A stretch of 64,000 nucleotides of DNA from an uncultured Elusimicrobia bacterium (GTDB lineage Bacteria > Elusimicrobiota > Elusimicrobia > UBA1565 > UBA9628), in NCBI GenBank assembly GCA_964510095.1, contig CAZEAE010000001.1, positions 232,551 through 296,550 of the forward strand, in the 5' to 3' direction. The notes beneath the pieces are model-generated. The model was not told the origin of the DNA and did not search any database. It worked only from the letters and a program-made list of their open reading frames with translations. The position numbers were made by a program, and so were the translations under genes. Positions 6,819 through 62,013 of this stretch are shown one piece after another (within the stretch, counting starts at the first letter, position 1; each line of letters opens with the position of its first letter).

Positions 6819-8255
6819 CTATCGCTTGATCTTGCGCTCGGTCTGCTCGATGAGCTGGCGCGTCCTCAAAGACGGGCTCACCTCGAAGGCTTTCTTGAAG
6901 AATTTAAGCGCGTAAGGCGCGTCGCCCTCGGCCAAAAGGCACTGGCCCAGGCCGACGTAAGCGTCGGCCACGTTCAGGTCGCTGAGCCCGAGTGAGCCCG
7001 CCAGCTTCAGGCCTTCCGTGTAGAAGCCTTTCGCCTTGCGCACGTCGCGCTCGGCAAGCGCGATGGTTCCCTGGCGCTCGTAATACAGCACGCGCCGGCG
7101 GTCTTCGGGCGCCAGCATCGCCTCGGCCAGCTCCAGCTCCGCGCGCGCGTCCGCGAACTGCTTCGCGTCGATCAGGCGCCGGGCCTTGGCGAAATGGCCC
7201 TCGGCGGTCTCTTCACCCTTGACCGGCTTGGCCTCCTTGGGCACATAAGCCTCCGTCCTCGTCCCCCAATCCACCTTCGGGGGAGGCTCGCGCCGAGGCT
7301 CGACTTTTTCCGGGATCGGCGCGTCTTCCTCGGGCGAAGGCTCATGGCCATCGTCGTGGCCGCCCCAGCGGAACGTGACGCTGGCGCGATGCGTCAGCCC
7401 CAGGTCCCCGTAGGGAGCGAAGGCGTAGTCGATCGAGAAAGACCGCCAGCCCCAGCCCACGCCGCCGGTGATGCCGATATCGGTGTCATTGGCCCCATTG
7501 AAGCCCAGACGCATCGTCATGGGCTTGAGCAGGACGACTTCCACGCCCGCATGCGCCTTCAAGCGGTCGGTGCGCCCCTTGGTCAGGTCGACGGCCACCG
7601 TCGCGCTGTCGAAGGCGTACGCCGCGCCGACCCGGCCGCTCAACGGCAGCTTCTCCTTGTCCCGGATGAAGCGCACGTCAGGCCCCACGTTCTGGATCGC
7701 CGCGCCCAGGGTGAAGCGCGGCGCCGGCGGCACCGTAAGCATCACGCCCGCGTCGCCGGCGAAGGCCGAGGCTTTCACGTTGTCGTTGGTCTCCTGGATG
7801 AACTTCCCGGCCACGCCCAGGCTGAGCGCTCCGAAGAACGTATGGCCATAACCCGCCGCCACGGCCAGGTCGTCGACACGGAACTTGCCCAGCGCGCCGT
7901 CCTTGGAGGCGTAGGTCGTCCGGGGGATGTTGCCGAAGCTCAGGTAGTTGAGGTTGAGCCCCAGGCCCTGCCTCAACGCCAGCCCCATGTACTCGTGGTT
8001 GATGCCCTCCACGTAGGAGTTATGCATCATGGTGACCTCATGCCGGGTGACCCGGCCCAAGCCGGCCGGGTTGTAGAGCAGCGCGTTGGCGTCCGTCGCC
8101 AAGGCCGTGTAGGCGCCGCCCAAGCCGACCGCCCGGGCGTTGCCGTCCAGGAACAGGAAGTCGAAGGGCTCGGCCCCGGCCGAGGCCGCGCCGTGAGCCC
8201 AGCCGGCGGAGCCGGCTGCCCACAGACCGAGCCAAAGGGCCAGTGTCTTCTTCAT
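6819..8255 (-). CDS. Outer-membrane beta-barrel of the FadL/TodX/PorV superfamily, fused to a C-terminal TPR domain
   Basis: A signal peptide is followed by the motif GLGGAYTALATDANALLYNPAGLG, which matches the FadL/PorV N-terminal signature G.G.A...A.DA....NPA.L. The barrel ends in an aromatic residue (FRW). The last ~140 aa hold TPR-like repeats. The ATG overlaps the stop codon of the giant gene (ATGA). Confidence 0.65.
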   Translation of the reverse strand: MKKTLALWLGLWAAGSAGWAHGAASAGAEPFDFLFLDGNARAVGLGGAYTALATDANALLYNPAGLGRVTRHEVTMMHNSYVEGINHEYMGLALRQGLGLNLNYLSFGNIPRTTYASKDGALGKFRVDDLAVAAGYGHTFFGALSLGVAGKFIQETNDNVKASAFAGDAGVMLTVPPAPRFTLGAAIQNVGPDVRFIRDKEKLPLSGRVGAAYAFDSATVAVDLTKGRTDRLKAHAGVEVVLLKPMTMRLGFNGANDTDIGITGGVGWGWRSFSIDYAFAPYGDLGLTHRASVTFRWGGHDDGHEPSPEEDAPIPEKVEPRREPPPKVDWGTRTEAYVPKEAKPVKGEETAEGHFAKARRLIDAKQFADARAELELAEAMLAPEDRRRVLYYERQGTIALAERDVRKAKGFYTEGLKLAGSLGLSDLNVADAYVGLGQCLLAEGDAPYALKFFKKAFEVSPSLRTRQLIEQTERKIKR

Positions 8256-11200
8256 CGGATGATCGAAAGCCTCTTGATGATGCTCTTCTGCCCGGGCGAG
8301 GCGATCACGGCGAAATAGCCGCCCGTGGCCAATTCCCGCCCATCCTCGTTGCGCGCGTTCCACTGCAGCCGGCCGCCGCTGTTGGCCGAGCTGAACTGGG
8401 CGGCCAGCTTCCCGCTGACCGTGAAGACCTTGATCGTGACGGCCGCCGGCAGGTTGTCGAAGACGATGCCCGAGTTCACGTTGCCCGGCGAGAAGGGACG
8501 GCCCTCATCGGGGTTGACGCCGTTGGGCTTGAAGGGCACCGGATAGACGCGCACGGTGTCCAGGTTGGCGGCGCCGGCCAGCGGGAAGGCGGCGAAGAAG
8601 CTGAAGTGGCGCGTCGCCCCGTAGACCGTGTGGTTGACCAGGTCGATCGTCGTCGTCAGGTCGGCCGTCCACTGGTTGGTCACGGTATCGAAGCTGTAGA
8701 GCTTAAGATCCTGAGCGCGCAGCGAGGTGCCGTCCAAGATGCCGTCGTCGTTGGCGTCGAGGTAGGTGAAGGTCAGGGTGGCCGAATTGCCGCCGGAGAG
8801 CAGCGTCTGGCCGTTGCCCAAGGTGATGCTCATCGAGATGCCGACGTCCTGCGTGCCCTCCGGGGCCGCGGCCGGCAGGACCGGGGAGTTGACGACCGAG
8901 ACCGTCGTCGAGGAGCCGCTCAAAGAGCCCGCCGGCAGGTCGATCTTCGTGACCAAGGAGCCGACGCCGGCTCCCGTGATCGCTTGCGGCGCACCGTTGT
9001 TGAGCACCTCCTCGCGCGTGATCAAGCTTCCCACCAGGCGCTCGCGCACGTCCCACCCCGCGGGGTCGACGACGACGGTCACCACCCCCGGCGTCGTATC
9101 GGAGGAATCAGAGATGTCGGCAGCCACCGCGCGCAGGTCATAGCTGGTGGCCGTCAAGCCGGTGACGTCCCAGTGCAGGAACCAAGGGGCCGACAGGTCG
9201 CCGTTGGTCTGCGTCGGCCCGGCCGGCACGACCGGGAGCCAGGCCGTGTCGCTGGATGCCTTGTATTGGAAAAGCACGCTCTTGGTCTGCGCATCCGTGC
9301 CGCTGAGCAGCTGCGCCGACACCGTGACGCGGTCGCCGGCGATGCGCTTTCCTGAGACGGGGGACTTGATCTGGGCCCGCACCGCCGACACCGACGCCGT
9401 CGATGATGCCGAGGCGTAGACGCCGGAGGTTTCTTCCACGCCGCAACGGTGCGCCGCCCGCAATGCGAAGAGATAGGTGGGGCTAGAGACCAGCACGCCG
9501 GTCGTATATGAGGTCTCAGTGGAGGTGAAGACCGCCGCCGGCGTGACGAAGTCGACCGCGCCCGTGCCCGCGTCGTAATACAGCTTATAGGCGGTGATGC
9601 CTTCCGTAGGTGAAGCCGTCCATGACAGGGAGATGCGGTTGCCGGTCAGCGCGTTGGCCGCCAAGCCGCTGGGCGCCGAAGGCGTCGAGGCCAGGGTCAC
9701 GAAGGAGACCGTGCCGTCGAAAGCGGTGGCCACCGCGTCTCCATTGCGGTTGCGCACGCGCAGGTAATACGTCGTGCAGCCCAAGAGGCCCGTGTCGGCG
9801 TAGGCGACCACCGAGCTCAAAGACACCAAGGAGAAGGCGGCATTGTCGGTGGAATGCTGGACCTCGGCCAGCGTGTCCGCGGGGTTGGTGTTGAGGCTCC
9901 AGGAGATCGTCGCGCTGGTGCCCTGGACCAGGCTGATGACGCTGCCCGTAGGCGGCGCGGCTAGGGTATAAGCCGTCGCGGCCGCAGACAGCGGCCCTTG
10001 CCCGCTGACGTTGATGCCCGCGACGACCAAGCCGTAGGCGGTGTTGGTGGCCAGGCCCAGGTGCGAGAACGCCGCCGCCGCCGGATTGCCGATGATCGAC
10101 GCCGTGTTCGAAGCGGGGAAGACGTAGTAGCCGACGGCATCGGCCGCCGCGCCCCAAGTCCAAGAGATCGACGAGACGCCCAGGGCCGCGCCGACGGGCA
10201 CGCCCGGCTGGCCGGGGGCCGCCGGCTCCGTCCGGGTGCTGACGGTCGCGTCGAAGGTCGTGACGCCGCCGTTGTGGCCGAGCGTGCGCGCTTTGAAGTA
10301 ATAGGTGGTCGACGGCGACAGCCCCGCAGCCTCGGCGTCGGTCACGGAGACCAGCGTCTTGACGGGCGACGCGAACGCGGCGGAGACGTCGCGCCAGAGC
10401 TCGTAGACCGTGCCGGGGTCGGGGTTGCCCTGCGGCAGCCAGTCGAGCGAGACGGTCGAAGACGTCACGCTCAGGACCTCCGTCGCCGACGGAGAGAAGG
10501 CGGGGCTAGCCGCCGAGCCCAGATCCTTCACGGTGCTGGCGTTGGCCCCGCTGCGGGCCCGGACGCGGAAATAATAAGTCGTGTTGGCCAGCAGGTCGGC
10601 TCCGGCTCCGCCCGCGCCGAAGACCACTGAGAGGTTCAGCGTCGACGAGCTGAAGTTCACGGAGGCGAAAGCGTCGCTGGAAAGGTCGGCCTCGTAGCCG
10701 GTGCCCGGCGGGTTGCCGCCATCGGTCCACGAGACGGTGACGCTGGCAAAATCGACGGCGACCAGGCTGGGCGCGCCGGCGCCGGGCTCGGCGAGCAGCG
10801 TCGTCGTGGAAGGCAGCGTCGTCAATGATGTGAGCCGGCCGCCGTGGCCCAGGGCCCGGACCTGGAAGTAGTAGGTGGTGTTGGCGCTCAGGCCGGCGAA
10901 GGCCGCCGAGACGCCGTAGGTGCCGCTCGAGGCGTTCAAGGTCGAGAACTCGTCGGTGGAGACCCGCGCCTCGTAAAGCGTGCCCGAAGCGTTGCCATTG
11001 GCAGTCCAGTTCGCGGTGACCGCCGCCGGGCCGACGAAGGTCGGCGCCAAGGCCGCGGGCTCGGCCGGCAAGGTGGCAGTGGCGACGACGGCCACGAACG
11101 CCGTGGGCATCGAGGCGGCGTTGAAGGCCTGCACCCGCAAATAGTAAGTGGCGTTGGACTGCAGGGCGAAGAAGGTGGCTGAAGTCAGGAGCGTATTGCT

Positions 11201-14200
11201 GGAGGCGTTGACCGTGGTGAAGGCGTCGGTCGATATCTGGGCCAGATAGGGCGTCGCGGCCGGATTACCGCCCGCGCCCCAGGACAGCGCGGCCGAGGAC
11301 AACTCCACCGCGCTCAAGAAAGGCGCCGCCGGCGTGACGGCCAGGGTCGGCGCGGCGGCGGCTTGCGCGAACGGGCTCGACCCGCCCCAGCCCAGCGCCT
11401 GGACGTGCAGGTAATAGGTCGTGTTAGGGGCCAACGCCTGGAACGTGGCGGAAAGGGAGAGCGTCTGGCTGGAGAGATTCAGGGTCGTGAAGCCGTCCGT
11501 AGACAGCTGGGCCAAGTAGACCGTGCCGGCGGGGTTGCCGTCGGCCGACCAATCCAGCGTCATCGAAGACAGCGCTATCGCGCTCAGCGCCGGCGCGGCC
11601 GGCGAAGCGGGCAAGGTGAAGGCCGGCGCCGCCGCGATGAAGACGGTAGGAAGCTCGTTGCTGTTGAGGGCGCGCACCCGCAGGTAATAGGTGGTGTTGG
11701 GCACCAGCGCCTGGAAGGTGGCCGAGACGTTGAGCGTCTGGCTGGTGATGTTGAGGGTCGTGAAGGCGTCGGTGGACAGCTGGGCTTGATAGCGCGTGCC
11801 CGCCGGATCGCCCCCGGAGCCCCAGGTCAGGCTCATCGACGAGACGCTGGGGCCGGCGGCGGGCGCCGCCGGAGGAGCGGCCAGCGTGGACGTCGAGCCC
11901 AGCGCTACGTTGGCGCTGACATTGGAAGGCCCCACCGTGCGGACCTGGAAGAAATACGTGGTGTTGGGCGACAGCGCGCTCCCGGCGCCTCCGGAGCCGA
12001 AGAGGGTAGAGAGGCTCAGCGTCAGCGAGCTGAAGTTCACCGTGGCGAAGGCGTCGGTGGAGAGCTCGGCGGCGTAGAAGGCTCCCGGGCCGTTGCCGCC
12101 GCTGGTCCACTGCACGGCGGCGCTGGCGGTCTCGACGGCCAAGAACGAACCCGCGGTCAAGCCCGGCGGCAGGAGCAGCGTGGTGGTCGAAGGCAGCGTA
12201 GCGAAGCCCGTGACCTGGCCGCCATGCCCAAAAGCGCGCACCCGGACGTAGTAGGTCGTATTGGATAGCAGCCCTGCGAAGCCGGCCGCGGCATTGAAAG
12301 TCGCGCTCGACTCATTGAGCGTGGCGAAGGTGTCGGTGGAAAGCTCGGCCTCGTAGCGGGTCGTCAGCGGCGCGTTGCCGTTGGCCGACCAGTTCGCCTG
12401 GAAGGCCGCCGCGGCCACGGCGGAGGGCTGGGCTGAGACCGGCAGCGCCGGCGGCGTCGCGGTGGCCGGCCCCACGGCGAAGCCGGTGGCGGCAAACGCA
12501 TGAGAAAGCGCCTGCACGCGCAGGTAATAAGTGGCGTTGGACAGCAGGCCGAAGAAGGTGGCCGAGGTCAGCAGGGTAGAGCTCGAAGCGCTGAGCGTGG
12601 AGAAGTCGTCGGTGGAGAGCTGTACCGCAAAGCGCGTGCCCGCCGGGTTGCCGTTGGCGCTCCAAGAGAGCGCGGCCGAGGACAGCTCGACGGCCGTCAG
12701 TGAAGCCCCGGCCGGCGTCGCCGCCAGCGTCGGCGCGGCGGCGGCGGAAGCAAACGGGCTCAGCGCGCCGGCCCAGCCGATGGCTTGGACGCGCAGATAA
12801 TAAGTGGTGTTGGGCACCAGGGCCTGGAACGTGGCGGAGAGGTTCAGCGTCTGGCTGGAGGTATTGAGGGTCGTGAAGGCGTCGGTAGACAGCTGCGCCA
12901 GATACACCGTCCCGGCCGGATCGGCGTTGGCGAGCCAATCGACGGTCATCGAGGACAGGTTGATCGCCGCTAAAGAGGGGCTCGGCGGCGCCGGCAGCGT
13001 GACGGTCGTCATCGCCGCCGCGTAGCTCGAAGGCACGCCGTTGTTGTTGACGGCCCGCGCGCGCAGATAGTAAGTCGTGTTGGGGACCAGCGCCTGGAAC
13101 GTGGCCGACAAGCTCAGCGTCTGGCTGGAGGCATTGAGCGTGACGAAGACGTCGGTGGAAAGCTCCGCCTGATAGACCGTGCCGGCGCCGTTGCCGGCCG
13201 AGGTCCAGGTCAGGCTCATCGACGAGACGCTCGGCAGCGCCGCGGAGGCGGCGGGGACCGCCGCCAGCGTCGACGTCGACCCCAAGGGGATGTCGGCGCT
13301 GCTGTTGCCTCCGCCCGTGGCGCGCACCTGGAATTGATACGTGGTATTGGGAGACAGCGCCGGGCCGGCCCCGCCCGCGCCGTAGAGGACCGTGAGGTTG
13401 AGCGTCGACGAGCTGAAGTTCAGCGTGGCGAAGCCGTCGGTGGACACCTGGGCCACGTAGACCGTCGTAGGCCCGTTGCCGCCGCTGTTCCACTGCACCG
13501 CGACGCTGGACTGCTCGACGAGGAAGAAGGAACTCCCCGCCGGCACCGGCGGCAGCAGCAGGGTCATGGTCGCGGGCAGGACCGTGAAGGCGGAAAGCCG
13601 GCCGTCATGGCCCGAGGCGCGGACCCGGACGTAGTAGGTCGTGTTGGACAACAGCCCGCCGAAGCCGGCCGAGACGTTGAGCGTCGCGCTCGACTCCCGG
13701 AGCGTGGAGAAGGCGTCGGTGGATATCTGGGCCTCGTAGAGGGTCGTCAGCGGCGCGTTGCCGTTGGGCGACCAGTCGGCCTGCAAGGAGTTGGCCGTGA
13801 TCGCCGAGGGCGGCGCCGACGCCGGTTCGGCGGCCGAGGTCGCCGTGGCCGCCGCGACGGCGAAGGCCGTCTGCGCCCCCGCATGCGACCAGGCGGCCAC
13901 CCGCAAGTAATGCGTGGCGTTGGAGAGCAGCCCGAAGAAGGTCGCCGAGGTCAAGAGCGTCCGGCTGGAGGAGTTGACCGTGACGAAGGCGTCGGTGGAG
14001 TCTTGCGCCAGATATTCGGTGCCCGCGGGATTGCCGCCGGCCGCCCAGCTCAGCGCGGCGGAAGTCACCCAGACGCCGCTGACCGCAGGCGAGACCGGCA
14101 GGTCAGGGAGCGTCACGGAAGGACTCGCCGCCGCGAACCCGCCCGGCCCGTAATGACCGGAGGAGCGCACGCGAAGATAGTAGGTCGTGTTGGGCGTCAG

Positions 14201-17200
14201 CGCGGTGAAAGTCGCCGACTGGCTGAGGGTCGCGCTCGTCAAGTTGACGGTGGCAAAATCGTCGGTGGAGACCTGCGCGTCGTAAGGCGTGCCGACGTCG
14301 TTGGAAGGCGAGCTCCAGGTCAGGACGGCGGAGGACAGGTTGACGGCGGTCGACGTCGAGGCCGGGTCGGCCGTCAAGGTGAAGCTCGAAGAGGGCGTCA
14401 GGAAGGCCGTCGCCGTGCCGCCGTGGCCCAGCGCCCGGACCCGAAGGGAATAGTCCTTGTTGGAGACCAAGCCGAAGAACGTCGCGCCGGCGTTGAGCGT
14501 CCAGCTGGAGGCGTTGAGCGTGAGGAAGGCGTCGGTCGACTGCTCCACGGCATAGAGCGTGCCCTCCGGGTTGCCGTTGCGGCCCCAAGAAAGGCCGTGC
14601 GACGACAAGCCGACCGAGAAGACCGCCGCGACCGGCGGGTGAGCCCAGGTGGCGGTGGCGCCAGACGCCGCGTAGTTATAGACGGCGCCATAGAGGGTGC
14701 CGACGCGCAAAGTGTAGGTCGTGTTGGGGAGCAGGCTTTGCGGGCTGAGCTGCGTCGACGATCCGTTGGTCGTGACCGAGGAGACGATGCCCGAGGAAAA
14801 ATCAGCGACGGAGGAGACCTCGGCGGAATAGCCGTCGGAGGCCGCCAACGCCCAGCTCAGCGTCACGCTCGAGCCGGAGACGCCGAGGAGCACCGGCGCG
14901 GCCGTAGGCGCCGACTTGGAGGCTTCCAGCGTCTGGCCGTAAGAGCCAAGATTGGCCCGCGCCCCGTTAGGCGACGCCTCGAGGCCGGCGGCGGCGGCCG
15001 GATCGGCGGCGTCGATGGTGAGCGCGGTGACGCCGTCGACGACGAATCCGGCCGCGGCGGGGTCCCAGCGTCCGCGCTGAGAGCGGGGATGGAAATCCTC
15101 GACGCCGCCGGAGGCGTCGTTCCAGAGCGGCTGGGCCGCCAGCGAGTTGAGGTCCCGGCCGGTGCCCGAGCGCCAGGCGGCGAGGAAGTCATAGCTCGAC
15201 GCTCCCCAGGTCCCGGAGTTGAGGACGGCGGAGCTGAAGAAGTCGTTATAATCGGAGACGAAGCCGCTCTGGCTGTCGGCGGAGACCTCGATGGTCGCCG
15301 AAGCTCCCGAGACGCTGAAGGAGCTCAGGAAGACGTTGCCCTTGACTTGGACGCCCGTCGAAGCGGAACGGACGCTCAACAGCACGGCATTGTTGAAGTT
15401 CGCCCCCGTGGCGTGAAGGTCGTTGAAGAGCAGCGAGCTGTTGGTGGTGGCCCACAAGGAGACCGCCTCATGGCTGCCCGAGGTGATCTTGCCGGGCTCG
15501 TTGAAGCGGTTGTGGTCGATCACCAGACCCGAGGAGCCTAGCGCATAGAGGCCGTAAGCGGTGACGCCGGGGATGGCCAAGGCGGTGCGGTAATAGACGC
15601 CGTTATCCTGGATGGTGGCGCCCGTGATCAAGCCGTTCAAGTGGATGCCGTAGGTGTCCAGCGACGTCGACAAGGTGGGCAGGACCGTGTTCGAGGTGAT
15701 CCAGACCTGGGCGCCGGCGCCCTGCGCCGCGACCCGGATGCCGTATTGGGCGCCGGTCCGGATCGTGTTGGTCGAGAGGATCAGGCGCCCGGCGCCCGCC
15801 TCCAGCGCGATCCCGGCGCCCTGGGCGCCGCCTGAGACGGTGTTCGAAGACATCGACAGGTTCACGCTGCCGGAGCGAAGCCAGAGGCCGCTGCCCAGCG
15901 CCGAGGTCGCCGCCAGGAAGTTCGACGAGACGACGGTGCCCGTGGCGCCGGCCACGATCACGGCGGTGGAGCCCTCGATGTAGCAGGAGGACACCGTGTT
16001 GGAGGATCCCTCGAGGAACTGAAGGCCGGCGGTGATCGTGCTCAGCGTGACCAGGTTGCCGATGGAGCCGCCGGTGATGACGGGAGCCGAGAGCAGGCTG
16101 CGGCTGACCGTGTTATAACTGCCCCCCGTCAGACGCAGGACGCTGATCGTGCTGAGCGTGACGGTGTTGTAATCGGCGCCTCCGCTCAACACCAGGCCGT
16201 AGCCCCCCGGGCTGGGGATCGAGAGCCCCGTCAACGTGTTGAACGCGCCGTTGACGTCGATCGAGGAGTTGCCGGTGATGACGCTTTGCGACAGCGTGTT
16301 GTAGTTGCCCCCGATGAAAGCGCCGCCGCTGACGAAGCCGGCCGCGTAGCTCTGCGTGATGATGTTCGAATAGGAACCCACCGAGATGGAGAGGCCTCCG
16401 TTTCCCGTCATCGTACTGAGGCTGATGACGTTGTCGTGGGCGCCGTTCTTAAGCTGGGCGCCGCCGAAGTTGCCGTAGAAGCGGCCGTTGGTGATGGTGG
16501 AGGAGGACGCTCCATCGAGGACCAGCGCGGCGTCGCCGGCCCCAACGACGGCCGACGTCGCATACGAGACGACGCTCCACGGCCCGGTGATCACCAAGCC
16601 GTGGCCGGCCAGGACCGTGATGCTGGAACGCTCTATCGAGCTGCCGCTCGACACCCGGACGCCGGCGCTCCAGATCCCGGCCCGGCCGTCGACGCTGACG
16701 CTGGAAAGGGCGACGTAGGCCGAAGAAGACCAGACGCCGTAGGCCACGGTGTTGGTCGTGATGATGGAGATCTGCTGGAGGGTCACCGAGTCGTTGAACA
16801 CGAGGAAGGCGGCAGTCGAGCCCGCCGGGGGGTTGAAGACCGGAGCGGAGCTGACGAAGGTCGGGTCGGCCATGATCCTGAGCCGATAGCCGTTGTTGGA
16901 AAAACCCTGGATGGTGACCTGCTCGCTATAGGTCAGCGCGTCGCGGATGACGAGGCAGGCGTCGCCGGTCAGGCCGGGCGGCATGGCGTTAAGCGCCCCT
17001 TGCAGTGTGACATGGTCCATGCTGCCGTCCTGCTTGACGTTGAAGCCGGTCAGGCAGCCCGGCGGCAGGCTCGACGCGGTATGGGTGGCCGCGACGAAGG
17101 AATAGTTGGCGCTGCCGTTCCAGTTGAGCGCGCCCAGGCGCAGGTAGTAAGTGGCGTTGCTCAGGCCCGTCAGGCTCAGCGTGCTCAAGGCCACGTTGGA

Positions 17201-20200
17201 AGTCGCGCTGGAGAACTGCGTGCCGCTGAAATCAGCCGCGGTGGAGGCCACCAGCACGTAGCCAGAAGAAGTCTTCGAGGAAGCGTCAGGCGGGCTTAAG
17301 GCCAGCGGGACCCAGTTGACCGTCACGCTCGTCGCGAAAACGCCGTAGAGCGAGACGCCTTGCAGGTCGCCGGCCCAGGTAGCCGTGGCCAGCGAGGCCC
17401 CGAAGTCCGTAGCCAGGCCGGCATGGTTGATCGCCTGCACGCGCGCCTGATAAGTCGTGTTGGGCAGGAGGTTCAAGAAGGCCGCCGCCGAGCCCATCGT
17501 GCGGCTGGATTCGTTGATCGTGACGAAGGCGTCGGTGGAGAGCTGGGCTGAATAGAGCGTGCCGGCCGGGTTGCCGTTAGCCGCCCAGCTCACGATGATC
17601 GAAGACGTGAAGACCACCGCCTCCGAGCCCTCCGCGGGGACGGCGGCCAAGGTCGGAGTCGAGACGGCGGCGCCCAAAGGATAGACCACGGCCGAGCCGT
17701 AAAGGGCGCCGACGCGGACGTAGTACGTCGTGTTGAGCGCCAGGCCCTGGGGACTGAGCTGCGTGGAAGCCGCGTTGGCCGTCGCGGAGGAGATCACGGA
17801 GGCGAAGCCCGGGTCGGTGGCCGCCTGGGCGTTGTAGCCGTCGGAAGCCACGGCGCCGAAGGTCAAGGTGATGCTCGACAGGTCGACGGCGCCGGCGATC
17901 TGGCCCGTCGGCGCCGGCGCCGCCTTCGAGGCCTCGGCCGTGCCGCCGTAGGACCCCGCATTGAGCCGCGAGCCGTTGGGCGAGGGCTCCAAGCCCACGG
18001 CCTCGGCCGGGTCGCCCGCGTCGATGGAACGCGCCAGCACCCCATCGACGACAAAACCCCCCGTGCCCGGGTCATAGCGGCCCCGCGGCGAGCGCGGGTG
18101 ATAATCCTCGACGCCGGCGGAGGGGTCGGCCCAGTAAGGATGCTGGCCGTCGAGCGAGTTGGCGTCCTGCCCGCTGCCCGCCGTCCAGGCGGAGGTCAGA
18201 GCGTAGGCCGCCGCGCCCCAGAAGCCGGTGCTGTAGGCATTCGAGCTGTAGTAGCTGTTGTAGTCGGAGACGAAGCCCGGCTGGCTGTCGGCCGACACGC
18301 TGATGGTCGCCGAAGAACCAATGACGGCCGTCGAGCTGAGGAAGACGTTATCCTTGACCTTGACCCCCGTCGACCCGGAGAGCACGCTCAACCCGTAGGC
18401 GTTGGTCAGGCCGGCGCCCGCCACGTGGACGTCGTTGGACTTGAAGGAGCTGTTCGTGGTGCCCGAGAACTTCACGGCCTCGTGGCTGCCCGCCGTGATC
18501 ATCCCGGGCGCCCCGAAACGGTTGCGGTCTATCAAAAGCCCCGCCGCGCTCTGCGCATAGAGCCCGTAGGAGGTAAAAGCTCCCATCGACCCCGCGCTGC
18601 GATAGAAGATCCCGTTGTTCTGGATCGTCGCGCCGCTGACCAGGCCGTTGAGGTAGATGCCGAAGGTGTCGCGCGAGGCGGACAAGGAAGGCAGGACGGT
18701 GTTCGAAGAGATCCACAACTGCGTCCCCGGCTGCTGGGTGGCGGCATAGACGGCGTAGCGCGCGGCCGCCGGGAAGGAGTTCGTCGAGATCAGCAGGCGT
18801 CCTGAGTTGCCCTCATCCACGAAGAGGCCGGCGCCCTGCGCGCCGCCGACGAGCGTGCTCGTCGACAGCGACAGGTCGAGGCTGCCGGCCGACATCCAGA
18901 GCGCGCTGCCCGCCGTATGGGTGGCGATGAGCACCGAGCCGCCGATGACGGTGGCAGTCGATCCATGGATGACGGCGGCCGTCGAACCCTGGATATAGGA
19001 ATCCACTATGGTGTTGGAGGATGATTCGCCGATATAGAGCGGATAAAGGTCCGCCGCGACGGCGGCGGAAGTCATGGTGCTGCGGATGATGGCGTTGTAG
19101 TCGGAGCCGGTGACCAGGATGGCGCCGTCTCCCGCCGTGTTGCGTATGGTGGAATCGACCACCGTGTTGTGGTCGCAATCGGAGAGGAAGAACGCGGCGG
19201 CGGTCGCGGAGTTGGCGCTCAAGACGCTCTGGCTGAAGGTGTTGTAGTCGGCGCCGGTGTTCATGCCGACGCCTTGACCCTGGAGGTTCGAGATGACGGA
19301 GCCGGTCACGGTGTTGTTGTCGGACGCGATGACCAGCAGCGCCAGCGCGCTGGCATGGTTGCAGGCCAGGGAGCTTTGGCTGATGACGTTGTAGTCGGAG
19401 CCGTTGGTCAAGAAGGCGCCATAGCCCGCCGCCGAGTGCTGGAAGTAGGAGCCGGTCACGGTGTTGCTGTCGGAAGCGGTCAGATAGAGCGCATGGAAGT
19501 CGTCGCCGGAGACGGCCACCGTGCTGTATTGGACCGTGGTGCGTATGGCGTAGTTCAAGCGCAGGCCGTCGGCGCTTTGGACGGTGATGCTGCCATAGGA
19601 CACCGACGACCAACTGCTCACGGCGACTCCGGCCGTCCAGATCTTGCCGCCGGAATCCACGTTGACGCTGGAAAGCGTCACGTAGGCCGAAGACGACCAG
19701 ACGCCGTAGGCCACGGTGTTGGTCGTGATGACCGTCAGGTGCTGGAGCGTGACCGAGTCGTTGATCACCAGAAAAGCCGCGGTGGAGGCCGTGGGCGGGT
19801 TGATGACGGGCGCGCTGCTGATGAAGCCGGGGTCGGCCATGATGGTCAGGCGGAAGCCGTTGTTGGCGAGGTTTTGCACGGTCACCTGCTCGTTATAGGT
19901 CTGCGTGTCGCGGACGACCACGCAGGAGTCGGTGCCGAGGAATGAAAGAGCCGTCACGGCGGCCTGGATGGTCGTGTAGTCCTTGCTGCCGTCCTGCTTG
20001 ACGTTATAGCCCGCGCCGCAGCCGGCCGGCAGGTCCAGGTAGGACTGCGACGCCTCGGCCGTCAGGCCGTAGGAGCCCTGGTTGGCGCGCCCGCCGTTGG
20101 GATTGGCCTCGAGCCCCGCGCCCAGGAGAGGATCGCCCCGGTCGATGGTCTGGGAGGTCTGGGCGTCGGCGGCGAAAGAACCCGTCGCCGGGTTCCAGCG

Positions 20201-23200
20201 TCCCGACTGAGAAAGCGGATGGAAATCCTCGACGCCGGCGCCGGGATCCTTCCAGCGCGGCAGCACCGCCGCGGAATTGGCGTCCTGGGAGCTGGCGGCG
20301 CGCCAGGCAGCAAGCAGGTCATAGCTCAAGAGCCCCCACAGGGCCGAGTTCGCGCTGTTGGAGCTGTAGAAGTCGTTGTAATCAGCGGAGAAGCCCGTCT
20401 GGCTGTCGCCGGAGACGGCGATCGTCGCCGAGGCGCCGGTCACCGAGAAGCTGCTGGAAAGGACGTTGTTCTTGACGGCCACGCCCGTCGAGCCGCTGTG
20501 CAGGCGCAGCACATAGGCGTTGGTCAGGGGAACCGAGGCCGCGCCATAGAGGTCGTTGAACTTCAACGTCGAGTTTACCGCCCCCGCCAGAGAGACCGCC
20601 TCGAAGCCGCCCGCGCTCAACACGTCGGGCTGGGAGATCCGGTTGTGGTCGACGACCAATCCGGCGACGCTCCTGGCGTGGAGGCCGTAGGCGGTGAAGG
20701 CGCCCATCGAACCCGCGGCGCGGTAATAGATCCCGTTGTTCTGGATCGTCGCCCCGGTGGCCAGGCCGTCGAGGTAGATGCCGTAGGTGTCGTAAGCCGC
20801 CGACAGCGTCGGCAGGACCGTGTTCGACGCGATCCAGAGCTGCGTCCCCGCTTGCTGGGTGGCGGCGTAAACGGCGTAGCGGCCGCCTTGGAATACGTTG
20901 GTGGAGAGGACGATCCGGCCCTTGTTGCCGTCCGCGAGGAACAAGGCCCGTCCCTGGGCGCCGCCTGAGACCGTGGACGAGGAGAGGCTGAGGTTGACGC
21001 TGGTGCTGGAGAGCACCAAGCCGTCTCCCGCGGCGATAGTGACGGCCAAGACGCTGCCCCCGATGACCGTGCCGGTCGAGCCCGAGACGTAGACCGCCGT
21101 CGAGCCCTGGATGTAGGAGCCGAGGATGGTGTCGGAGGAAGAGTTTTGGACATAGAGTCCGTAGCCCGTCCCATTGGAGGCCATGGTGCTCATCGAGATC
21201 ACCGTGTTGGTGTTCAAGGCTAGGTAGGCGCCATGGCCATTGGCGCTGTAGGCGTATATCTGGCTGAACGAGTTGCCGGAGCAGCCTTGGACATCCAGCG
21301 CGGCGGACGACGCGTAGATGCGCGCGTTGGTGACGGTGTTGCTGGGCGAGGCGTTGAAGGAAAGGCCCACCTCCTGAGCGACCTGGATGTAGACGTCGGA
21401 GACCGTCGTATGGTGGTTGCCGCCCCAGGCCCAAAGGCCGTAGGCGCCCGCGATGAAGGTGCTGGCGCTGACGGAGGTATAGTTGGCGCCCTCATCGAGC
21501 CCCAGCGCCCAGCCGGCGCCCATGTTGCGGAGGAAAGAGCCGGTGATCGCCGTGCCGCTGCTCCACTGGGCTCCGATCACGTCTACGGCGGAGCTGTTGG
21601 TGACGCCGGTGCTGTAGGCGATCGTGTTGTAATCGGAGCCGACGTCCAGATATATCCCCAGCGCGCCGGACAGGTTCTGCACGTAGGAGCCCGTGACCGT
21701 ATTGCTGTCGGAGTGGCTCAAGTAGAGCACGGAGTTGGTTGTGGCCGCGCTCGCCGCATTCGAGACCATGGTGCTGAGGCTGATCGCGTTGTAGTCGGAG
21801 CCGGCGACCAGGCGGACGGCGGGGCCCGCCTGGCTCAGGAAGTAGGCGTTGGCCACCGTGTTGTTGTCGGCCGTGGAAAGAAAGAGCGCGCTGAAGCCGG
21901 AGCCGGCGGCGGAGGCCGTGCTGTAGAGGATCGTGCTGCCCAAAGAGGCGTTCAAGCGCAGGCCGTCGGCGCTTTGGACGGTGATGCTGCTGTCGGCGAC
22001 CGACGACCAGCTGCTCACCGCCACTCCCGCCGTCCAGATCTTGCCGCCGGAATCGACGCTGACCCTGGCCAGCGTCACATAGGCCGAGGAAGCGTAGACC
22101 CCGTAAGCCACCGTGTTGGTGGTGATGATGGCCATGTTCGTGATCGTCACCGAGGCGTTGGCCAGATAGAAGGCGGCGGTGGACCCCGCCGGCGGGTTTA
22201 TGACCGCCGGACCGGCCTGGGAGGGGTCGGCCGTGACGAAGCTCAGGCGATGATCGTTCATCGCCAGGCCCGACACGCTCACCTGCTCGCTGTAGGTCTG
22301 GGTGTCGCGGATGACCACGCAGGAGTCGACGGCCAGGGAGCCGCCGAAGGAGGCCAAAGCGGAGGCGATCGTCGTGAAGGCGTAACCGGTCTTGGCCACC
22401 TCGGCGGCGACGGCACAGCCGAGGGGCAGGCCCAAGGGCGTGACCACGGAGCTGATCGACACGAAGTTCGGCGCCCCCCTCCAGTTGAGGCCGCCCACGC
22501 GCAGGTAGTAGGTCGTCAGCCCGCTCAAGCCCGACACCGTCAGCGTGCTCAAGGCGGCGTTCGGCGTGGAGGATGAGAAGATCAGCCCCGTGTAGGTCGG
22601 AGAGGTGGAGGCTTGGAGCAGGTAGCCTTCCGCCGTCTTGGAAGAGGCGTCCGGCGGGCTCGATGGCAGCGCAAACCAGTTGGCGGTCACGCTCGCCCCG
22701 TTGACCGCGTAGACGGCGGCCGCCAGCACGGGCTTGCTCAGCGTGCCGCTGTCGCCCAGGACCGTGAAAGGCCCCCCCGCCGAGGTCGACACCTGCAGGT
22801 AGTAGCTGGTGTTGGGGAGCAGCGACACGGCCCCGCCGAAGGTGGCGAAGAGGTTGAGCGTCGTCGAGCTCTGGTTGCCGGCGAAGACGTTGGGCCAAGG
22901 CGCGCTGGAGAGGTTCGCGGTGTAGCTCAGCCCCGGCGGGAAGCTCGAGTCCCAATGGACCGTCACGCTGGTGGCCCCGATCGCCGTCCAGCTGGAGGCG
23001 CTGATCACGCCGAAGACCGGGAAGGTCCAATTCAAGTTGTTGCCGCGGTCCAAGCTCGAGGCCGCGGAGATGGCGCCGCCGCCGCTGGAGTCGATGTCCT
23101 TCACCGCCGTGAAGCTGACGTCGGAGAAGACCGCCGTCATCTTGCCGCGCGTCCCGTCGGAGCTGCTCCTGATCGTCTGCCTCGTGCCCGCCGCCTGGCC

Positions 23201-26146: not shown

Positions 26147-26887
26147 TCAGTCTTGGAGCCGGAAGATGATGTTCTGGGGGAGCTTGACCGGCACCGGCCC
26201 GCCGCGGCCGACGGCCGGCGAGAAGCGCATGAGCGCGGCGACCTTGCGCGCGGCGGCGTCGAAAGCCGCTCCGGCGGAGGCCGTGACGTCGACGGGGTCG
26301 ACCTTGCCGTCGACGCCTATGTGGAGCGCGACGACCACCGTGCCCTCGCGCCCGGCGCGCCGCTCGCTCTCGGGATAGAAGCGCCGCAGATTAGCCAAGA
26401 CCTCGTCGCGGTTGAGCAGCTTCGGCAGCTGCAGAAGCGCGGCTCCGCCGTTGCCGGTGCCGCCGGGCACGCCGTCATCGGAGCCCGCCCCCGAGCCGCC
26501 GACCTTGGCCGCCGTGCCTTTTCCATCCACCGCGCCTCCCGAGGTGGCCGCGGGCGCCTCAGGAGCCTCGATGACCTTGGTCTGCGGGCCGGGCAGGACC
26601 CAGTCCTTCGGCGGCTCGACCGGCTTGACCACCGGGGCGGCGACCGGGCTGTCCACGGGTCGCGCCGGAGCCTTGGCTTCGGGCGCCAGCTTTTTGGGGG
26701 CGCCAAGCTTAGCCGGGCCGGTGCCCAGAAAAGAGGAGGTCAGGTCGATCTCCGCCGACGGCGACGGCGCCCATGAAGGCAGGCTCAGCCCGTGGGCGGC
26801 CAGCCAGAGGCCGCAGTGGAACAAGACGGAGGCGGCTAAAGCGCGTTGAAAGAGGCCCTCTTCCGCCGTCAGCTGCCGCAGCTTCAC
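26147..26887 (-). CDS. tonB: TonB-family energy transducer: N-terminal TM helix, Pro-rich linker and TonB C-terminal domain
   Basis: TM helix ASVLFHCGLWLAA; PEAKAP/KPVEPP proline-rich region; the C-terminal block REGTVVVALHIGVDGKV...F.PA...G.PV fits TonB_C. ATGA overlap with exbD. Confidence 0.65.
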   Translation of the reverse strand: MKLRQLTAEEGLFQRALAASVLFHCGLWLAAHGLSLPSWAPSPSAEIDLTSSFLGTGPAKLGAPKKLAPEAKAPARPVDSPVAAPVVKPVEPPKDWVLPGPQTKVIEAPEAPAATSGGAVDGKGTAAKVGGSGAGSDDGVPGGTGNGGAALLQLPKLLNRDEVLANLRRFYPESERRAGREGTVVVALHIGVDGKVDPVDVTASAGAAFDAAARKVAALMRFSPAVGRGGPVPVKLPQNIIFRLQD

Positions 26888-27276
26888 TTGACCTCCAGGC
26901 CGATCTTGCGCACCCCCGCTCCGCGCACGACGTCGAGCAGGGCTACGACCTCGCCGTACGGCAGGGTCTTGTCCGCCGACAGCGAGACATGCAGGTCGGG
27001 ACGGGCCTTGGCGAGCCCGGACAAGGTCTTGGCCAGCTCGGCGGCCGTCGTCAGCTTTCCGCCCAAGGCGACCTGCCGCTGAGCGTCGAAGAGTATCTGC
27101 AGCGTCTCGGTGGCGGTGCGTTCGTGGTGGGCGGCCTTGGGCACCTCGACCTTGAGGGCTCGCTTGGCGATCATGGGCGCGGTGGCCATGAAGATGATGA
27201 GCACGACGAGGATGATGTCGACCAGCGGCGTGACGTTGATGGCGGTGATCGCCTCGTCGCCGCTTCCGGACTGCAC
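26884..27276 (-). CDS. exbD: Biopolymer transport protein ExbD/TolR
   Basis: The motif INVTPLVDIILVVLIIFM is the ExbD signature. The start is assigned to a GTG (VQSGSG...) that overlaps the exbB stop by 1 nt; the longer listed ORF is an upstream-extension artefact. Confidence 0.6.
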   Translation of the reverse strand: MQSGSGDEAITAINVTPLVDIILVVLIIFMATAPMIAKRALKVEVPKAAHHERTATETLQILFDAQRQVALGGKLTTAAELAKTLSGLAKARPDLHVSLSADKTLPYGEVVALLDVVRGAGVRKIGLEVK

Positions 27277-27911
27277 TACTGCCTCCGGCCCGCCGGCGCC
27301 GAGCGGATGTGGGCCAAGAGCAGCCGGCCCAGCAGCTCGGTGCCCATCAGCAGGTCCTTGGCCTTCTTCTGGAAGTAGTTGAAGCCTACGACGCAGGGGA
27401 TGGCCACGATCAGGCCGACGGCAGTCGCGATCAGCGCCTCGGAGAGCCCCTGCATGACGACCTCCGGACCCGAGCCGCTCTCCCCCAGGTCGTGGAAAGC
27501 CTTGATGACGCCCAGCACGGTGCCGAAAAGGCCGATGAAAGGGGCGTTGCTGCCCAGGGTGCCCAAGACCAGCAGGCGCTGCTCGACGCGCCGCCTTTCG
27601 GCCAGGGTGGCCGCGACCATATGGTCCTCGACGCCGGCGGGGCCGTGCTTGGCCTGCTTGAGGCCGGCCAAGAGCACGCGCGCGGCGGCGCCGGGATGGG
27701 CGCGGATGGTCTTCTCCACGGCGGGAAGGTCGCGGTCGTCCCAATCCCCGATGAGCGCGGAGTTGAGCGTCTCGAGGGCGCGCAGCTCTCGGCTGAGCAA
27801 GAGCCCGCGCTCGATGATGACGGCGACCGCCGCGATCGAGCAGAGCAAGAGGCCGTAGATGACCCAATCGCCGCCCGTCAGCGCCAACGACCTTAAGAAG
27901 AGCAGATCCAT
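27276..27911 (-). CDS. exbB: MotA/TolQ/ExbB proton-channel family protein
   Basis: 211 aa with three TM segments. The motif GTLGSNAPFIGLFGTVLGVIKAF is a canonical ExbB/TolQ signature. Confidence 0.75.
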   Translation of the reverse strand: MDLLFLRSLALTGGDWVIYGLLLCSIAAVAVIIERGLLLSRELRALETLNSALIGDWDDRDLPAVEKTIRAHPGAAARVLLAGLKQAKHGPAGVEDHMVAATLAERRRVEQRLLVLGTLGSNAPFIGLFGTVLGVIKAFHDLGESGSGPEVVMQGLSEALIATAVGLIVAIPCVVGFNYFQKKAKDLLMGTELLGRLLLAHIRSAPAGRRQ

Positions 27912-27915
27912 GTCG

Positions 27916-28737
27916 TCACCGGTCCTTGAAGCGGTCGAGGTTGAGCAAGGCCGAGACGAGCTCGGCCTTGACGGAAGCGTTGGGCTCGAAGGTCAACTGC
28001 TGCATCAGCTTGCGGTATTCCTCGGCGCCGCCGAGCTCTCCCAGGTAGCGCACGGCCATGGCCCGGAGGAACCAGTCGGTGTGCCGGGCCATGCGCAGCA
28101 AGATCTCGCGGCCGGTCACATCGCCCATGCGCCAAAGCCCGGCGGCCGCGTAGATCTGCATGACCGGAGAGCGGTCGTCGCGCGCGGCGTTGGCCACCTG
28201 GAACTGCACGGCCGGGCTGCCGAGGATGAGCAGGGACTCCAAGGCCCCCAGGCGCACGGTCACGTTTTGATCGATGAGGGCTCCTTGAAAGAGGCCCAGG
28301 TAGCGCAGGTCGCGGGTGTAGGCCAAAGCGACCATGGCGGCGGCGCGGGTCTGCACGTTGCTGCCCTGGCGCACCGTGCGCTCGAGCTCGCTGGTCAGCT
28401 CGAGGTCGGTGACGCCGGCCAAGCCCTCGGTCAATAAAAAGCCCAATTCGGTATAGCGCGTCTTGAGCTGATAGCCCTTCACCGTCGAGATCTTCCCCAG
28501 GTTGCCGATGGAGGAATCGAGTAGGGCCTGGGAATCCGGACGCGCGTCCTGGCGCTGGCGCAGGAGGCGCAGCAGATGCATGTTGATCTGAGGGTCGATG
28601 ACGGCGCTCTTAGGGACCCTGTAGCGCGGCGCCGAGATCTCGAGGTCCTCGAGCCGGTAGGTGGTCAGGTCGACGGCCAGGTTCTGCGCGAGCGCCGCCG
28701 GCGCCAAGACCAGCAGCAGCGCGGTCAGCCCCCTCAC
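27916..28737 (-). CDS. Secreted HEAT-repeat (PBS-lyase HEAT-like) protein
   Basis: A signal peptide ending AALAQ; repeated V(R/Q)..A...LG......A...L..LL.D motifs. Confidence 0.5.
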   Translation of the reverse strand: MRGLTALLLVLAPAALAQNLAVDLTTYRLEDLEISAPRYRVPKSAVIDPQINMHLLRLLRQRQDARPDSQALLDSSIGNLGKISTVKGYQLKTRYTELGFLLTEGLAGVTDLELTSELERTVRQGSNVQTRAAAMVALAYTRDLRYLGLFQGALIDQNVTVRLGALESLLILGSPAVQFQVANAARDDRSPVMQIYAAAGLWRMGDVTGREILLRMARHTDWFLRAMAVRYLGELGGAEEYRKLMQQLTFEPNASVKAELVSALLNLDRFKDR

Positions 28738-29582
28738 TTGGGCACCGTCTTAGGGAAGAGCTTAAGGGCGGCGATGCAGTACTCGGCCACGACGAAGTCG
28801 TTGCTGACCTCGCGGCCGATGCGGGAGGTCATGAGGCGATAATCCTCTGCGGCGCCGTAATCGCCGAGGTAGCGGGCGGCCATGGCGCGCACCAGCCAGC
28901 TGGGGTCGTCCAAAAAGGCGCGCAGGCGCAGCAGGCCGGAGGGGTCTTCCATGCGGGCCAAGCCCGAGGCGGCATAGACGCGCAGGATGGGCTCGTACTC
29001 GCGCTCGGTGGCCATCGACAAGAGCGACATCGACTTCTCCGGATGCCCCCAGACGATGAGCGCCTCGAGGGCGGCGAAGCGCACCGCGGGGTCCAGGTGG
29101 ACCAAGGCCTCCCGGAAGATGTCGAAATGCGCGATATCGTGAAGGCCGGCCAGCGCGACCAGGGCGTTGGCGCGCGTCTCGCCGTTGTTGTCCCAGCGAG
29201 CCAGTTCGATGAGCTTCTGACGGAAGACGGGGTCGGCATTGCGCGAGGAGGCCTCGGACAATGGGACACCGATATTGAGGAATCGGTTCCTCAGCTGGAA
29301 GCCGATGGGCGAGCCCACGCTCAATATCTCGCCTAGGGGCGTGCCTTGCACGTTGGCCAGGTCGACGCGGGCCTTGTCCTTGCGCTCGATGAGGTCGACC
29401 AAGGTGTTGGTGATCTGGGCGTCGGGCTTGACGGCCGGCGCCGGGGGCGGCGCGCCGGCGGCGACGCCGCCCGCGGGGGCCGCGGGACCGCCGGGGATGA
29501 CGGGGGCTTCCACGCAGCCGCCCAGCGCCAGGCCGAGCGCGGCCAAGAAGATCCACCGTCGGGAAGCGTTCATCCTCTTCAT
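28734..29582 (-). CDS. HEAT-repeat lipoprotein
   Basis: Lipobox LALGGC; HEAT-like repeats (DPAVRFAALEALIVWGHPE, DPSWLVRAMAARYLGDYGA); ATGA overlap with the downstream HEAT gene. Confidence 0.5.
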   Translation of the reverse strand: MKRMNASRRWIFLAALGLALGGCVEAPVIPGGPAAPAGGVAAGAPPPAPAVKPDAQITNTLVDLIERKDKARVDLANVQGTPLGEILSVGSPIGFQLRNRFLNIGVPLSEASSRNADPVFRQKLIELARWDNNGETRANALVALAGLHDIAHFDIFREALVHLDPAVRFAALEALIVWGHPEKSMSLLSMATEREYEPILRVYAASGLARMEDPSGLLRLRAFLDDPSWLVRAMAARYLGDYGAAEDYRLMTSRIGREVSNDFVVAEYCIAALKLFPKTVPK

Positions 29583-55980: not shown

Positions 55981-56820
55981 CTACTGGTAGAAGTAGAGCC
56001 CGGCGCCGAACTTGTAGTCCTCGAAGGGCTCGGTCAGGGGCTCGATGACGGTACCGATCATGACCTTGCCCTGGCTGACGAGATACTCGGCGCGCTCCTT
56101 GACCTTCTTCTCGATCTCTTCGCGCGTCTTGCCGATGCGGCTGACGTAGCCGACCTCGCGGCCGAAGTAGACCATCATCCACTTCTCGGGCGTCTGCAGG
56201 ATATCGAGGCCCGCCCTCCTGAGCAGCTCGAAATCGATGTCGTCGCCGGGCTTGAGCACGCGCACCTGCGACTCGTCTTCCGTCCGCGCCTGAGGCTTGA
56301 CCAGGTAATAGACGTTGTAGGTCGGCAGGAGGAACTCGAGGTCGAGCACGTAGGAGGTCAGCACGCTCACCTGCCGCTGGGCCAGCGCGGACAGGACCAT
56401 GGCGCGGTTGTCGCGCAAAGAGGCGTCGTCCTTGGGCTTGAACTGCCGGGGCTCGGCCCTGAAATCGCGGATCACGGAGCCGTCGGCGGTCTTGTAGGGG
56501 ATCGTGTAGAAGCCGCTCTTGAAGGTGGCCTTGCCGGGCGTGATGCCGGCGCCGGAGAGTATTGCCGACCACAAGGCCACGGCTTCTTCGAACTGGGCGT
56601 CGGTGTCGGCGTAGCCGAAGAGGACTTCCTTGCCGCTCTGGGCGAGGAGGTAGCCCTTGCTCAGGCGGTCCTGCGGCGCGCCCAAGACGGAAGGCGCGGC
56701 GGCGGCGCTTTGGACCTGGCGCAGGCCGAGGTCTGAGAAGGGGATCGAGCCAAGGGTCTGCGCGGCCTGGGCCGAGGCGCAGAGAGAGGCGAGCACAAGG
56801 GAGGTCAAGAGGGTTTTCAT
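55981..56820 (-). CDS. Hypothetical secreted protein
   Basis: Signal peptide (ASAQAAQ); 279 aa; ATGA overlap with tag upstream. Confidence 0.5.
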   Translation of the reverse strand: MKTLLTSLVLASLCASAQAAQTLGSIPFSDLGLRQVQSAAAAPSVLGAPQDRLSKGYLLAQSGKEVLFGYADTDAQFEEAVALWSAILSGAGITPGKATFKSGFYTIPYKTADGSVIRDFRAEPRQFKPKDDASLRDNRAMVLSALAQRQVSVLTSYVLDLEFLLPTYNVYYLVKPQARTEDESQVRVLKPGDDIDFELLRRAGLDILQTPEKWMMVYFGREVGYVSRIGKTREEIEKKVKERAEYLVSQGKVMIGTVIEPLTEPFEDYKFGAGLYFYQ

Positions 56821-57329: not shown

Positions 57330-57437
57330 GGCGATAAAACGGCGGAGAGGGTTGGACGCTGTTCGAAACCGAAAGTCTCACTGACGGATCGGTTTCGAAT
57401 CGAAGTTAAGCGCAGCCCCTCCGGTAAAAAGCTTATA

Positions 57438-57483
57438 GCCTTAGCGCCAACGAAACGGCGCTGAGGCTATTTTATTGCTTTTA
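57438..57483 (+). terminator. Hairpin (13-bp imperfect inverted repeat TAGCCTTAGCGCC/GGCGCTGAGGCTA) followed by TTTTATTGCTTTT. Terminator-like, or part of an attachment site
   Basis: A stem-loop plus a T-run, read directly from the sequence, lying 40 bp upstream of the integrase start. Confidence 0.3.
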
Positions 57484-57523
57484 GCCGGGATTACAAGGGA
57501 CTCGCCACTTCGGGGAGCGTCCT

Positions 57524-61677: not shown

Positions 61678-61741
61678 AGTTATTCCCTCCAATTTATTTG
61701 CTCCTGTTTCGGGAGCAAACATCATACAAAGTTAGGCTTGC

Positions 61742-61993: not shown

Positions 61994-62013
61994 ACATAGC
62001 CGGTCTTGTTTTT

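Follow-up and report, generated by a model that had tools for sequence, protein, structure and literature searches.

A diverged repeat of five-FN3 blocks in the predicted stalk of a giant fibre protein from an uncultured Elusimicrobia bacterium

The giant gene considered here lies in a stretch of 64,000 nucleotides (nt), termed the window, of contig CAZEAE010000001.1 (positions 232,551 to 296,550, forward strand; GenBank assembly GCA_964510095.1) from an uncultured Elusimicrobia bacterium. It is a single uninterrupted open reading frame (ORF) of 17.8 kb at 8252-26044 on the minus strand, with a G+C content at third codon positions (GC3) of 0.90, and encodes a protein of 5,930 amino acids (aa) that starts with a signal-peptide-like sequence and is matched by the Pfam models fn3 (E = 2e-93, 307 bits, 10 stretches, within the C-terminal 2930 aa) and Beta_helix (PF13229, E = 1.3e-28). 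Our subject is a tandem repeat of blocks of five FN3 units inside this gene, which very probably forms the middle of the stalk of a giant surface fibre that grew stepwise by old duplications of the five-unit block and is by now diverged and stable. The FN3 array was cut into units at the conserved N-x-T-Y-Y-x-R-V motif, giving units of 89-99 aa whose lengths recur as 92, 99, 89, 90 and 91. The gene and the parts of this array are as follows.

8252..26044, minus strand: giant gene; parts of the product in order, from ORF, translation, Pfam and self-blastn: signal peptide, three N-terminal repeats of ~331 aa, two FN3 units, beta-helix modules 1 and 2 back to back, three FN3 units, beta-helix module 3, ~20 FN3 units, conserved C-terminal stalk, C-terminal domain (CTD) of type IX secretion system (T9SS) type
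12731..14113, minus strand: repeat copy 1, aa 3978-4438 (A1 13838-14113, B1 13541-13837, C1 13274-13540, D1 13004-13273, E1 12731-13003)
11348..12730, minus strand: repeat copy 2, aa 4439-4899 (A2 12455-12730, B2 12158-12454, C2 11891-12157, D2 11618-11890, E2 11348-11617)
10508..11347, minus strand: repeat copy 3, partial, lacking D and E, aa 4900-5179 (A3 11075-11347, B3 10778-11074, C3 10508-10777)
14114..14650, minus strand: two divergent FN3 units in register with D/E (u3 14114-14383, u2 14384-14650)
9404..10507, minus strand: terminal FN3 units T1-T4 between repeat and C-terminal stalk, located with hmmsearch

Between 10508 and 14113, 13 clear FN3 units follow one another as A-B-C-D-E, A-B-C-D-E and A-B-C, i.e., 2.6 copies of a period of 460/461 aa or 1380/1383 nt, and the partial copy 3 abuts terminal FN3 units that are conserved across the family. 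With a profile built from the window units u1 to C3 themselves, which makes the unit scores partly circular, the 13 repeat units reached 91.5-122.1 bits, u2 111.0 bits and u3 102.3 bits.

A preliminary description of this DNA had proposed a ~1.38-kb higher-order tandem repeat with five FN3 units per copy, in the same order, inside the giant gene, and this was borne out at the level of both DNA and protein. In-frame autocorrelation of the DNA at 9400-14700 peaked at lag 1383 with 47.5% and at lag 2763 with 45.2% identity, the mean over all in-frame lags being 33.2% with a standard deviation of 1.3%. Self-blastn aligned 10560-12692 with 11940-14075 (offset 1380, 72.2% identity over 2160 columns) and 10531-11812 with 13294-14575 (offset 2763, 65.6% identity over 1311 columns), so that the periodicity is not restricted to the protein, and a direct-repeat search returned families spaced by 270-276 nt and by 1380/1383 nt with 60-82% identity. 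Units located five positions apart share on average 65% identity in protein and 70% in DNA as against 45-51% and 57-59% at other lags, and when the order of the 13 units was randomized 200,000 times, the observed lag-five protein identity was never reached. Identity between the copies at third codon positions is 0.62 vs. 0.42 expected from composition. Based on nucleotide autocorrelation and long colinear self-blastn alignments, the DNA-level periodicity is therefore far beyond chance, and the region is a higher-order tandem duplication, or super-repeat, of five FN3 units that is colinear in DNA and protein. Tandem Repeats Finder reported nothing in the repeat region, which is no argument against the repeat because the program is limited to periods of at most 500 nt and needs ~70% identity, while the units are less than 70% alike.

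The number of copies depends on how the two units preceding copy 1 are treated. Ungapped identity of u2 and u3 to D1 and E1 amounts to 53-56% vs. a baseline of 35%, and the 65.6% self-alignment takes in u2/u3 sequence; the unit-level identity of the two hardly exceeds background. Judged from these comparisons, u2 and u3 may represent a degenerate remnant of an earlier repeat copy. The original estimate of about three copies is reached exactly, as 3.0, when u2 and u3 (to 14650) are counted and comes down to the 2.6 clear copies when they are not. Near-identity of the repeated blocks, also part of the preliminary description, is not found: same-type units share 63-75% of their DNA sequence and the longest exact match is 27 nt. 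When the blocks named there were scored by ungapped in-register identity (semi-global alignments of 300-nt blocks being short and unreliable), the one at 10.14 kb turned out to lie outside the repeat, with 43% identity to its supposed partner vs. a baseline of ~35%, and those at 12.88 and 14.26 kb agreed in only ~53-56% of positions.

The copies differ considerably from one another. Units of the same type are 54-79% identical in protein and 63-75% in DNA, all other unit pairs about 47% and 58%, and directly adjacent units ~49% in protein. Values for entire copies, including synonymous (dS) and nonsynonymous (dN) divergence, are given below.

Copy 1 vs. copy 2: 72.6% nt identity, 67.8% aa identity, dS 0.68, dN 0.24, dN/dS 0.36
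Copy 3 (A-B-C) vs. copies 1 and 2: 65-67% nt identity, 58-61% aa identity, dS 0.83-0.86, dN 0.32-0.36, dN/dS 0.37-0.44

Overall, dS between copies ranges from 0.60 to 0.86, a figure that is underestimated, if anything, given the GC3 of 0.90, and dN/dS from 0.36 to 0.46; the best stretch of 600 nt is 75.5% identical. Because dS lies at 0.6-0.9 and dN/dS at ~0.4, the repeat consists of old duplications that have been maintained by purifying selection. Gene conversion was considered as a source of the similarity between same-type units and rejected, as identity is spread evenly over the copies (0.61-0.87 per 90 nt) and long identical or conversion-like tracts are absent.

Traces of the way in which the array arose are still visible in unit A2, where the following junction was located.

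12455..12560, minus strand: inferred ancient crossover junction in unit A2, at about window position 12505, just past the conserved NATYYLRV motif, from maximum chi-square analysis

The first third of A2 is more similar to A3 (identity 0.73) than to A1 (0.61), and in the last third this relation is reversed (0.61 to A3, 0.71 to A1). Using the 246 sites at which copies 1 and 3 differ, the maximum chi-square test placed the breakpoint at alignment column 225 of unit A (chi2 18.8, permutation p = 0.0006), such that copy 2 resembles copy 3 on the N-terminal and copy 1 on the C-terminal side of the junction. A neighbour-joining tree of the units has the groupings (B1,B2)B3, (C1,C2)C3 and (A2,A3)A1, with D and E as sisters. 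This is the tree expected from an unequal crossover between two A units of an A-B-C-D-E-A-B-C array, an event that also predicts the chimeric A2 observed here. Copy 2 is chimeric and bears the trace of an unequal crossover that took place long ago between two A units; the array was therefore built by recombination between units that then resembled each other more closely than they do at present. In the order of events that we propose, duplication of a single unit would have given rise to the sister units D and E, a block duplication would then have produced two partial copies, and the unequal crossover between two A units would have added one extra full five-unit period together with the chimeric A2. 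Afterwards the copies drifted to 66-73% DNA identity under purifying selection. At present each unit would be retained as a folded spacer of the FN3 type, and the copies would behave like any other unique sequence.

Relatives of the giant protein were sought in three collections. The protein collection yielded best matches with 45% identity (42% for the top-scoring match), nearly all named ones being from Elusimicrobia, and returned nothing longer than 2085 aa. A relative of 3710 aa is nevertheless known from an NCBI metagenome-assembled genome (L001), although this search returned nothing above 2085 aa; very long proteins seem to be beyond its reach, which makes the absence of giant orthologues from its results weak evidence. 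Scanning species-representative genomes with the C-terminal 751 aa gave two loci only (48-50% identity), and scanning metagenome contigs with the repeat gave 68 loci with at best 41% identity. All relatives found are metagenome-assembled. They share the membrane-proximal end B-C-T1...T3, the C-terminal stalk and the CTD, and differ in their heads, e.g., an S8 peptidase in P0010, an M6-like peptidase in P0009 and kelch in P0005. The best matches of the terminal units occupy the same position in P0003, P0006, P0009, P0010, P0045, L003 and L007.

Blocks of FN3 units are repeated in the relatives as well, with periods of 2, 3, 4 and 5 units as judged from protein autocorrelation. At the DNA level, the repeats compare as follows.

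L001, 6660-8300: block repeat, period 528 nt, 92% DNA identity over 600 nt, longest exact repeat 70 nt
L003, 4474-6100, and L011, 12480-13600: block repeats, period 831 nt, 93% over 600 nt, longest exact repeat 275 nt
L007, 10811-12900: block repeat, period 1374 nt, 92% over 600 nt, longest exact repeat 98 nt
L005: block repeat, period 1140 nt, 85% over 600 nt, longest exact repeat 41 nt
Window, same comparison: period 1383 nt, 75.5% over 600 nt, longest exact repeat 27 nt

The nearest relatives of the window units are one another. In the same way, B-C pairs cluster by protein (bootstrap 0.92 for window copies 1 and 2, 0.995 for P0002 and 0.60 for P0003), and the amplifications are therefore lineage-specific and recurrent. 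Stalk length thus changes by block duplication across the wider family, in agreement with a survey according to which repeats of domains mostly grow through duplications that take in several domains together (PMC1553488), a general mode that the family-wide block repeats fit. An ancestral origin of the five-unit order was also considered and dropped, since units of the relatives are only 36-58% identical to window types A-E; the only unit types that can be recognized throughout the family are C, T1 and T3.

The recurrence of blocks raises the question whether the order A-B-C-D-E, or at least the triad A-B-C, is itself selected, as in titin and nebulin, be it that same-type units are spaced to prevent misfolding or that the period matches that of a partner with a regular spacing of its own, e.g., a surface layer or a polysaccharide. 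The order B to C, an LLLPP-like linker and the GxGGAG loop of unit C do recur membrane-proximally in many family members, the block has been re-amplified independently (three times in the window, three times in P0003, twice in P0002 and also in P0046, P0017 and L002), dN/dS values below 0.5 show that the units are maintained, and selection against aggregation has been suggested as a factor that may favour multi-domain duplication (PMC1553488). In relatives, however, the sets of units that have been amplified are quite different, their periods being 2, 3, 4 and 5, so that no particular period or order is required; block duplication alone yields an ordered repeat without any selection on order, and no partner is known. 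We therefore regard a selected super-repeat as unlikely and an array grown by block duplication as the better description of the window. As such it closely resembles the super-repeats compiled by Bjorklund, Ekman and Elofsson (2006; PMC1553488), in which duplication units comprise seven domains in nebulin, five in cadherin and mostly four for FN3, and which also include titin: the autocorrelation peak lies above one domain, ordered blocks have been duplicated inside an array, and neighbouring domains are less alike than domains one period apart. Unlike these, the window gene is bacterial and intron-less, has a period of five FN3 units and still allows the last crossover to be located, in A2. 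The repeat is a standard example of a stalk that grew through duplication of multi-domain blocks, unusual only in that its last crossover junction is still visible.

A further explanation takes the array as an active recombination substrate of the Periscope type, i.e., frequent recombination, fibre length that varies between strains, and collapse or expansion of the array in assemblies; both recombination and assembly collapse had been envisaged in the preliminary description. As to recombination, this is correct for the past, given that the array did grow by unequal crossover, with the footprint in A2, and is not supported for the present, when the copies are 66-73% identical in DNA, exact matches do not exceed 27 nt and dS is 0.6-0.9. 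Sequence divergence lowers the rate of RecA-dependent homologous recombination. With 27-34% nucleotide divergence and exact stretches of no more than 27 nt, recombination between the copies should be rare, and on this general knowledge the present-day copies should be poor substrates of the RecA type. A site of assembly collapse is not to be expected here either, because k-mers longer than 27 nt are not shared between the copies, which leaves a short-read assembler with nothing to collapse. Periscope proteins are a documented class (PMC8201768), and family members with young repeats exist (92-93% DNA identity, exact repeats of 70-275 nt). In Periscope arrays, high identity of the DNA is a prerequisite, and adjacent domains in the characterized example are 82-100% identical in protein (PMC8201768), as compared to ~49% for adjacent and 54-79% for same-type units in the window, which thus falls outside the group of proteins with highly similar repeats delimited by Whelan et al. 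(2021). What the window protein does have in common with Periscope proteins and fibrillar adhesins, e.g., the SasG, Rib and Sgo_0707 SHIRT arrays (PMC8201768; PMC8286594), is a stalk of folded domains between a distal functional region and a surface anchor, with a length set by domain number. The identity figures largely refute an active substrate, which we consider improbable, and there is no need to mark the window locus as a risk to assembly or as a gene subject to phase or length variation. True candidates for recombination-driven length variation and assembly collapse are the relatives L003, L007, L011 and L001 with their blocks of 92-93% identity.

An assembly artefact, with the three copies resulting from a mis-join of strain variants or from expansion of a shorter array by the assembler, is very unlikely and the least probable explanation of all: the source is uncultured and the relatives found are all metagenome-assembled, but the 17.8-kb reading frame runs through the region without interruption, the copies differ at ~30% of positions, bear the mark of purifying selection at the codon level and yield a coherent duplication tree, where strain variants would be nearly identical, chimeric joins are seldom in frame and at domain boundaries, and the partial copy 3 meets the terminal units exactly as in the relatives.

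Outside the five-FN3 repeat, the giant gene is also largely repetitive.

23009-25969, minus strand: three tandem N-terminal repeats of ~331 aa (self-blastn: DNA offset 993 nt, 70.9% identity over 1353 columns)
14921-22441, minus strand: three beta-helix (PF13229) modules of ~720-755 aa each, mutually diverged repeats (self-blastn: offsets 2121, 2400, 3000 and 5130 nt, 67-74% identity)

The N-terminal repeats, which gave no significant match in Pfam or NCBIfam, probably form the distal head of the fibre. Three FN3 units come after the adjoining beta-helix modules 1 and 2, and the long FN3 array comes after module 3. Nested block duplications make up the whole giant gene.

The C-terminal end of the giant protein and the gene that follows bear on the way in which the fibre would be attached.

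8255..8566, minus strand: C-terminal domain of 104 aa with predicted T9SS CTD fold (AlphaFold model and Foldseek)
6819..8255, minus strand: gene for a PorV/PorQ-family outer-membrane barrel with a C-terminal TPR region (NF033709 PorV_fam)

An AlphaFold model of the CTD, calculated with 19 family sequences, has seven strands and a mean predicted local distance difference test score (pLDDT) of 88.4. Its best Foldseek match is the CTD of PorZ (5m11; E 5.9e-8, TM 0.71, root-mean-square deviation 2.6, 30% identity), and further matches comprise the CTDs of NucA, RemA, the cargo of the SprA extended translocon (8gl8_D) and PorU, those of NucA and RemA being cargo bound in SprA-PorV complexes. According to this model, the last 104 aa adopt a seven-strand immunoglobulin-like beta-sandwich as in solved T9SS CTDs. 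By sequence, the CTD matches the model of the PorZ C-terminus with E 1.9e-8, far under the whole-protein cutoff, and CHU_C (0.016) and FlgD_ig (0.038) only weakly. The neighbouring gene scores 145.8 bits with NF033709 (cutoff 90, E 2.2e-42) and reaches 3.6e-27 with PorQ; as the PorQ and PorV equivalog models stay below their own cutoffs, this establishes membership at the family level only. Its ATG (8255-8253) overlaps the TGA of the giant gene (8254-8252) as ATGA in the sequence ...CGATGAAGAAG..., which suggests translational coupling of the two genes, and the encoded protein has a signal-peptide-like start, MKKTLALWLGLWAAGSAGWA. The gene pair is conserved: a PorV/PorQ-like gene comes next after the FN3 giant gene in L001, L002, L003, L004, L007 and L008; in L012 and L015 it is found ~2.8-4.7 kb downstream of the matched region.

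FN3 domains usually have a length of ~3.5-4 nm, so that each five-unit copy would lengthen the stalk by roughly 17-20 nm. On this stalk the N-terminal repeats and the three beta-helix modules would stand clear of the cell, and the PorV/PorQ-like barrel from the overlapping downstream gene would keep the CTD at the outer membrane. Anchoring of this kind has precedents in Porphyromonas, where PorQ anchors PorZ at the cell surface (PMC5562754), and in Flavobacterium, where the giant adhesin SprB binds the neighbouring barrel SprF (PMC9143113), and by analogy a cognate barrel probably keeps the window fibre on the outer membrane. With SprB and SprF of Flavobacterium johnsoniae (PMC9143113) and PorZ and PorQ of Porphyromonas gingivalis (PMC5562754) this fibre shares the combination of a very large repetitive surface protein, a T9SS-type CTD and an adjacent barrel, here of the PorV/PorQ family. 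It differs in that the host belongs to the Elusimicrobiota rather than the Bacteroidota, in that its CTD scores below curated sequence thresholds, in that its barrel is of the PorV/PorQ rather than the PorP/SprF kind and carries an extra TPR tail, and in that core T9SS genes were not seen within the 64-kb window.

Several points weigh against our view of the region as the anchored stalk of a surface fibre that grew by old block duplications. The unit count is that of the assembled sequence, and the breakpoint test used 246 informative sites in saturated sequence. None of the collections searched contained a relative with more than 50% identity; matches in the protein search were all of 2085 aa or less, and giant orthologues may have been missed. 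For B-C pairs, monophyly of all three window copies is weakly supported (bootstrap 0.44). With regard to attachment, sequence models for the CTD all remained below their cutoffs (TIGR04183: 17.9 bits vs. a cutoff of 23), and the scanned genes of the window include no core T9SS gene (SprA/Sov, PorK/L/M/N, GldK-N), which makes the export route uncertain.

The genomic context may in the end be of greater weight than the repeat itself, as a fibre with a T9SS-type CTD and a PorV/PorQ-like barrel form a pair that is conserved in a phylum without described type IX secretion. The reviews that were retrieved place the T9SS in the Bacteroidota or the FCB group, and literature searches for Elusimicrobia in combination with FN3 or with type IX secretion retrieved nothing relevant. 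It is conceivable, if still doubtful, that the two genes constitute an undescribed cassette of the Elusimicrobiota, in which a giant FN3 fibre with a PorZ-like CTD is translationally coupled to its own PorQ-like barrel; this would amount to CTD/barrel surface anchoring outside the Bacteroidota, with the membrane-proximal A-B-C block as a functional module, re-amplified time and again in different lineages to tune the projection of the head.

Genes for a TonB_C protein, an ExbD-domain protein, which is unusually long with 327 aa, and two HEAT-repeat proteins (26147-29582, minus strand) lie immediately upstream of the fibre gene, with which they share the strand and from which a gap of 102 nt separates them; these may form one operon with it. 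At the other end of the window (56000-64000), G+C content falls from ~0.66 to 0.53-0.61 and genes for a phage-type integrase with an HTH_17 domain (57524-59110) and a DUF2779 protein (62014-63513) are present. No tRNA gene was found anywhere in the 64-kb window. The region at 56000-64000 may represent an integrated mobile element.

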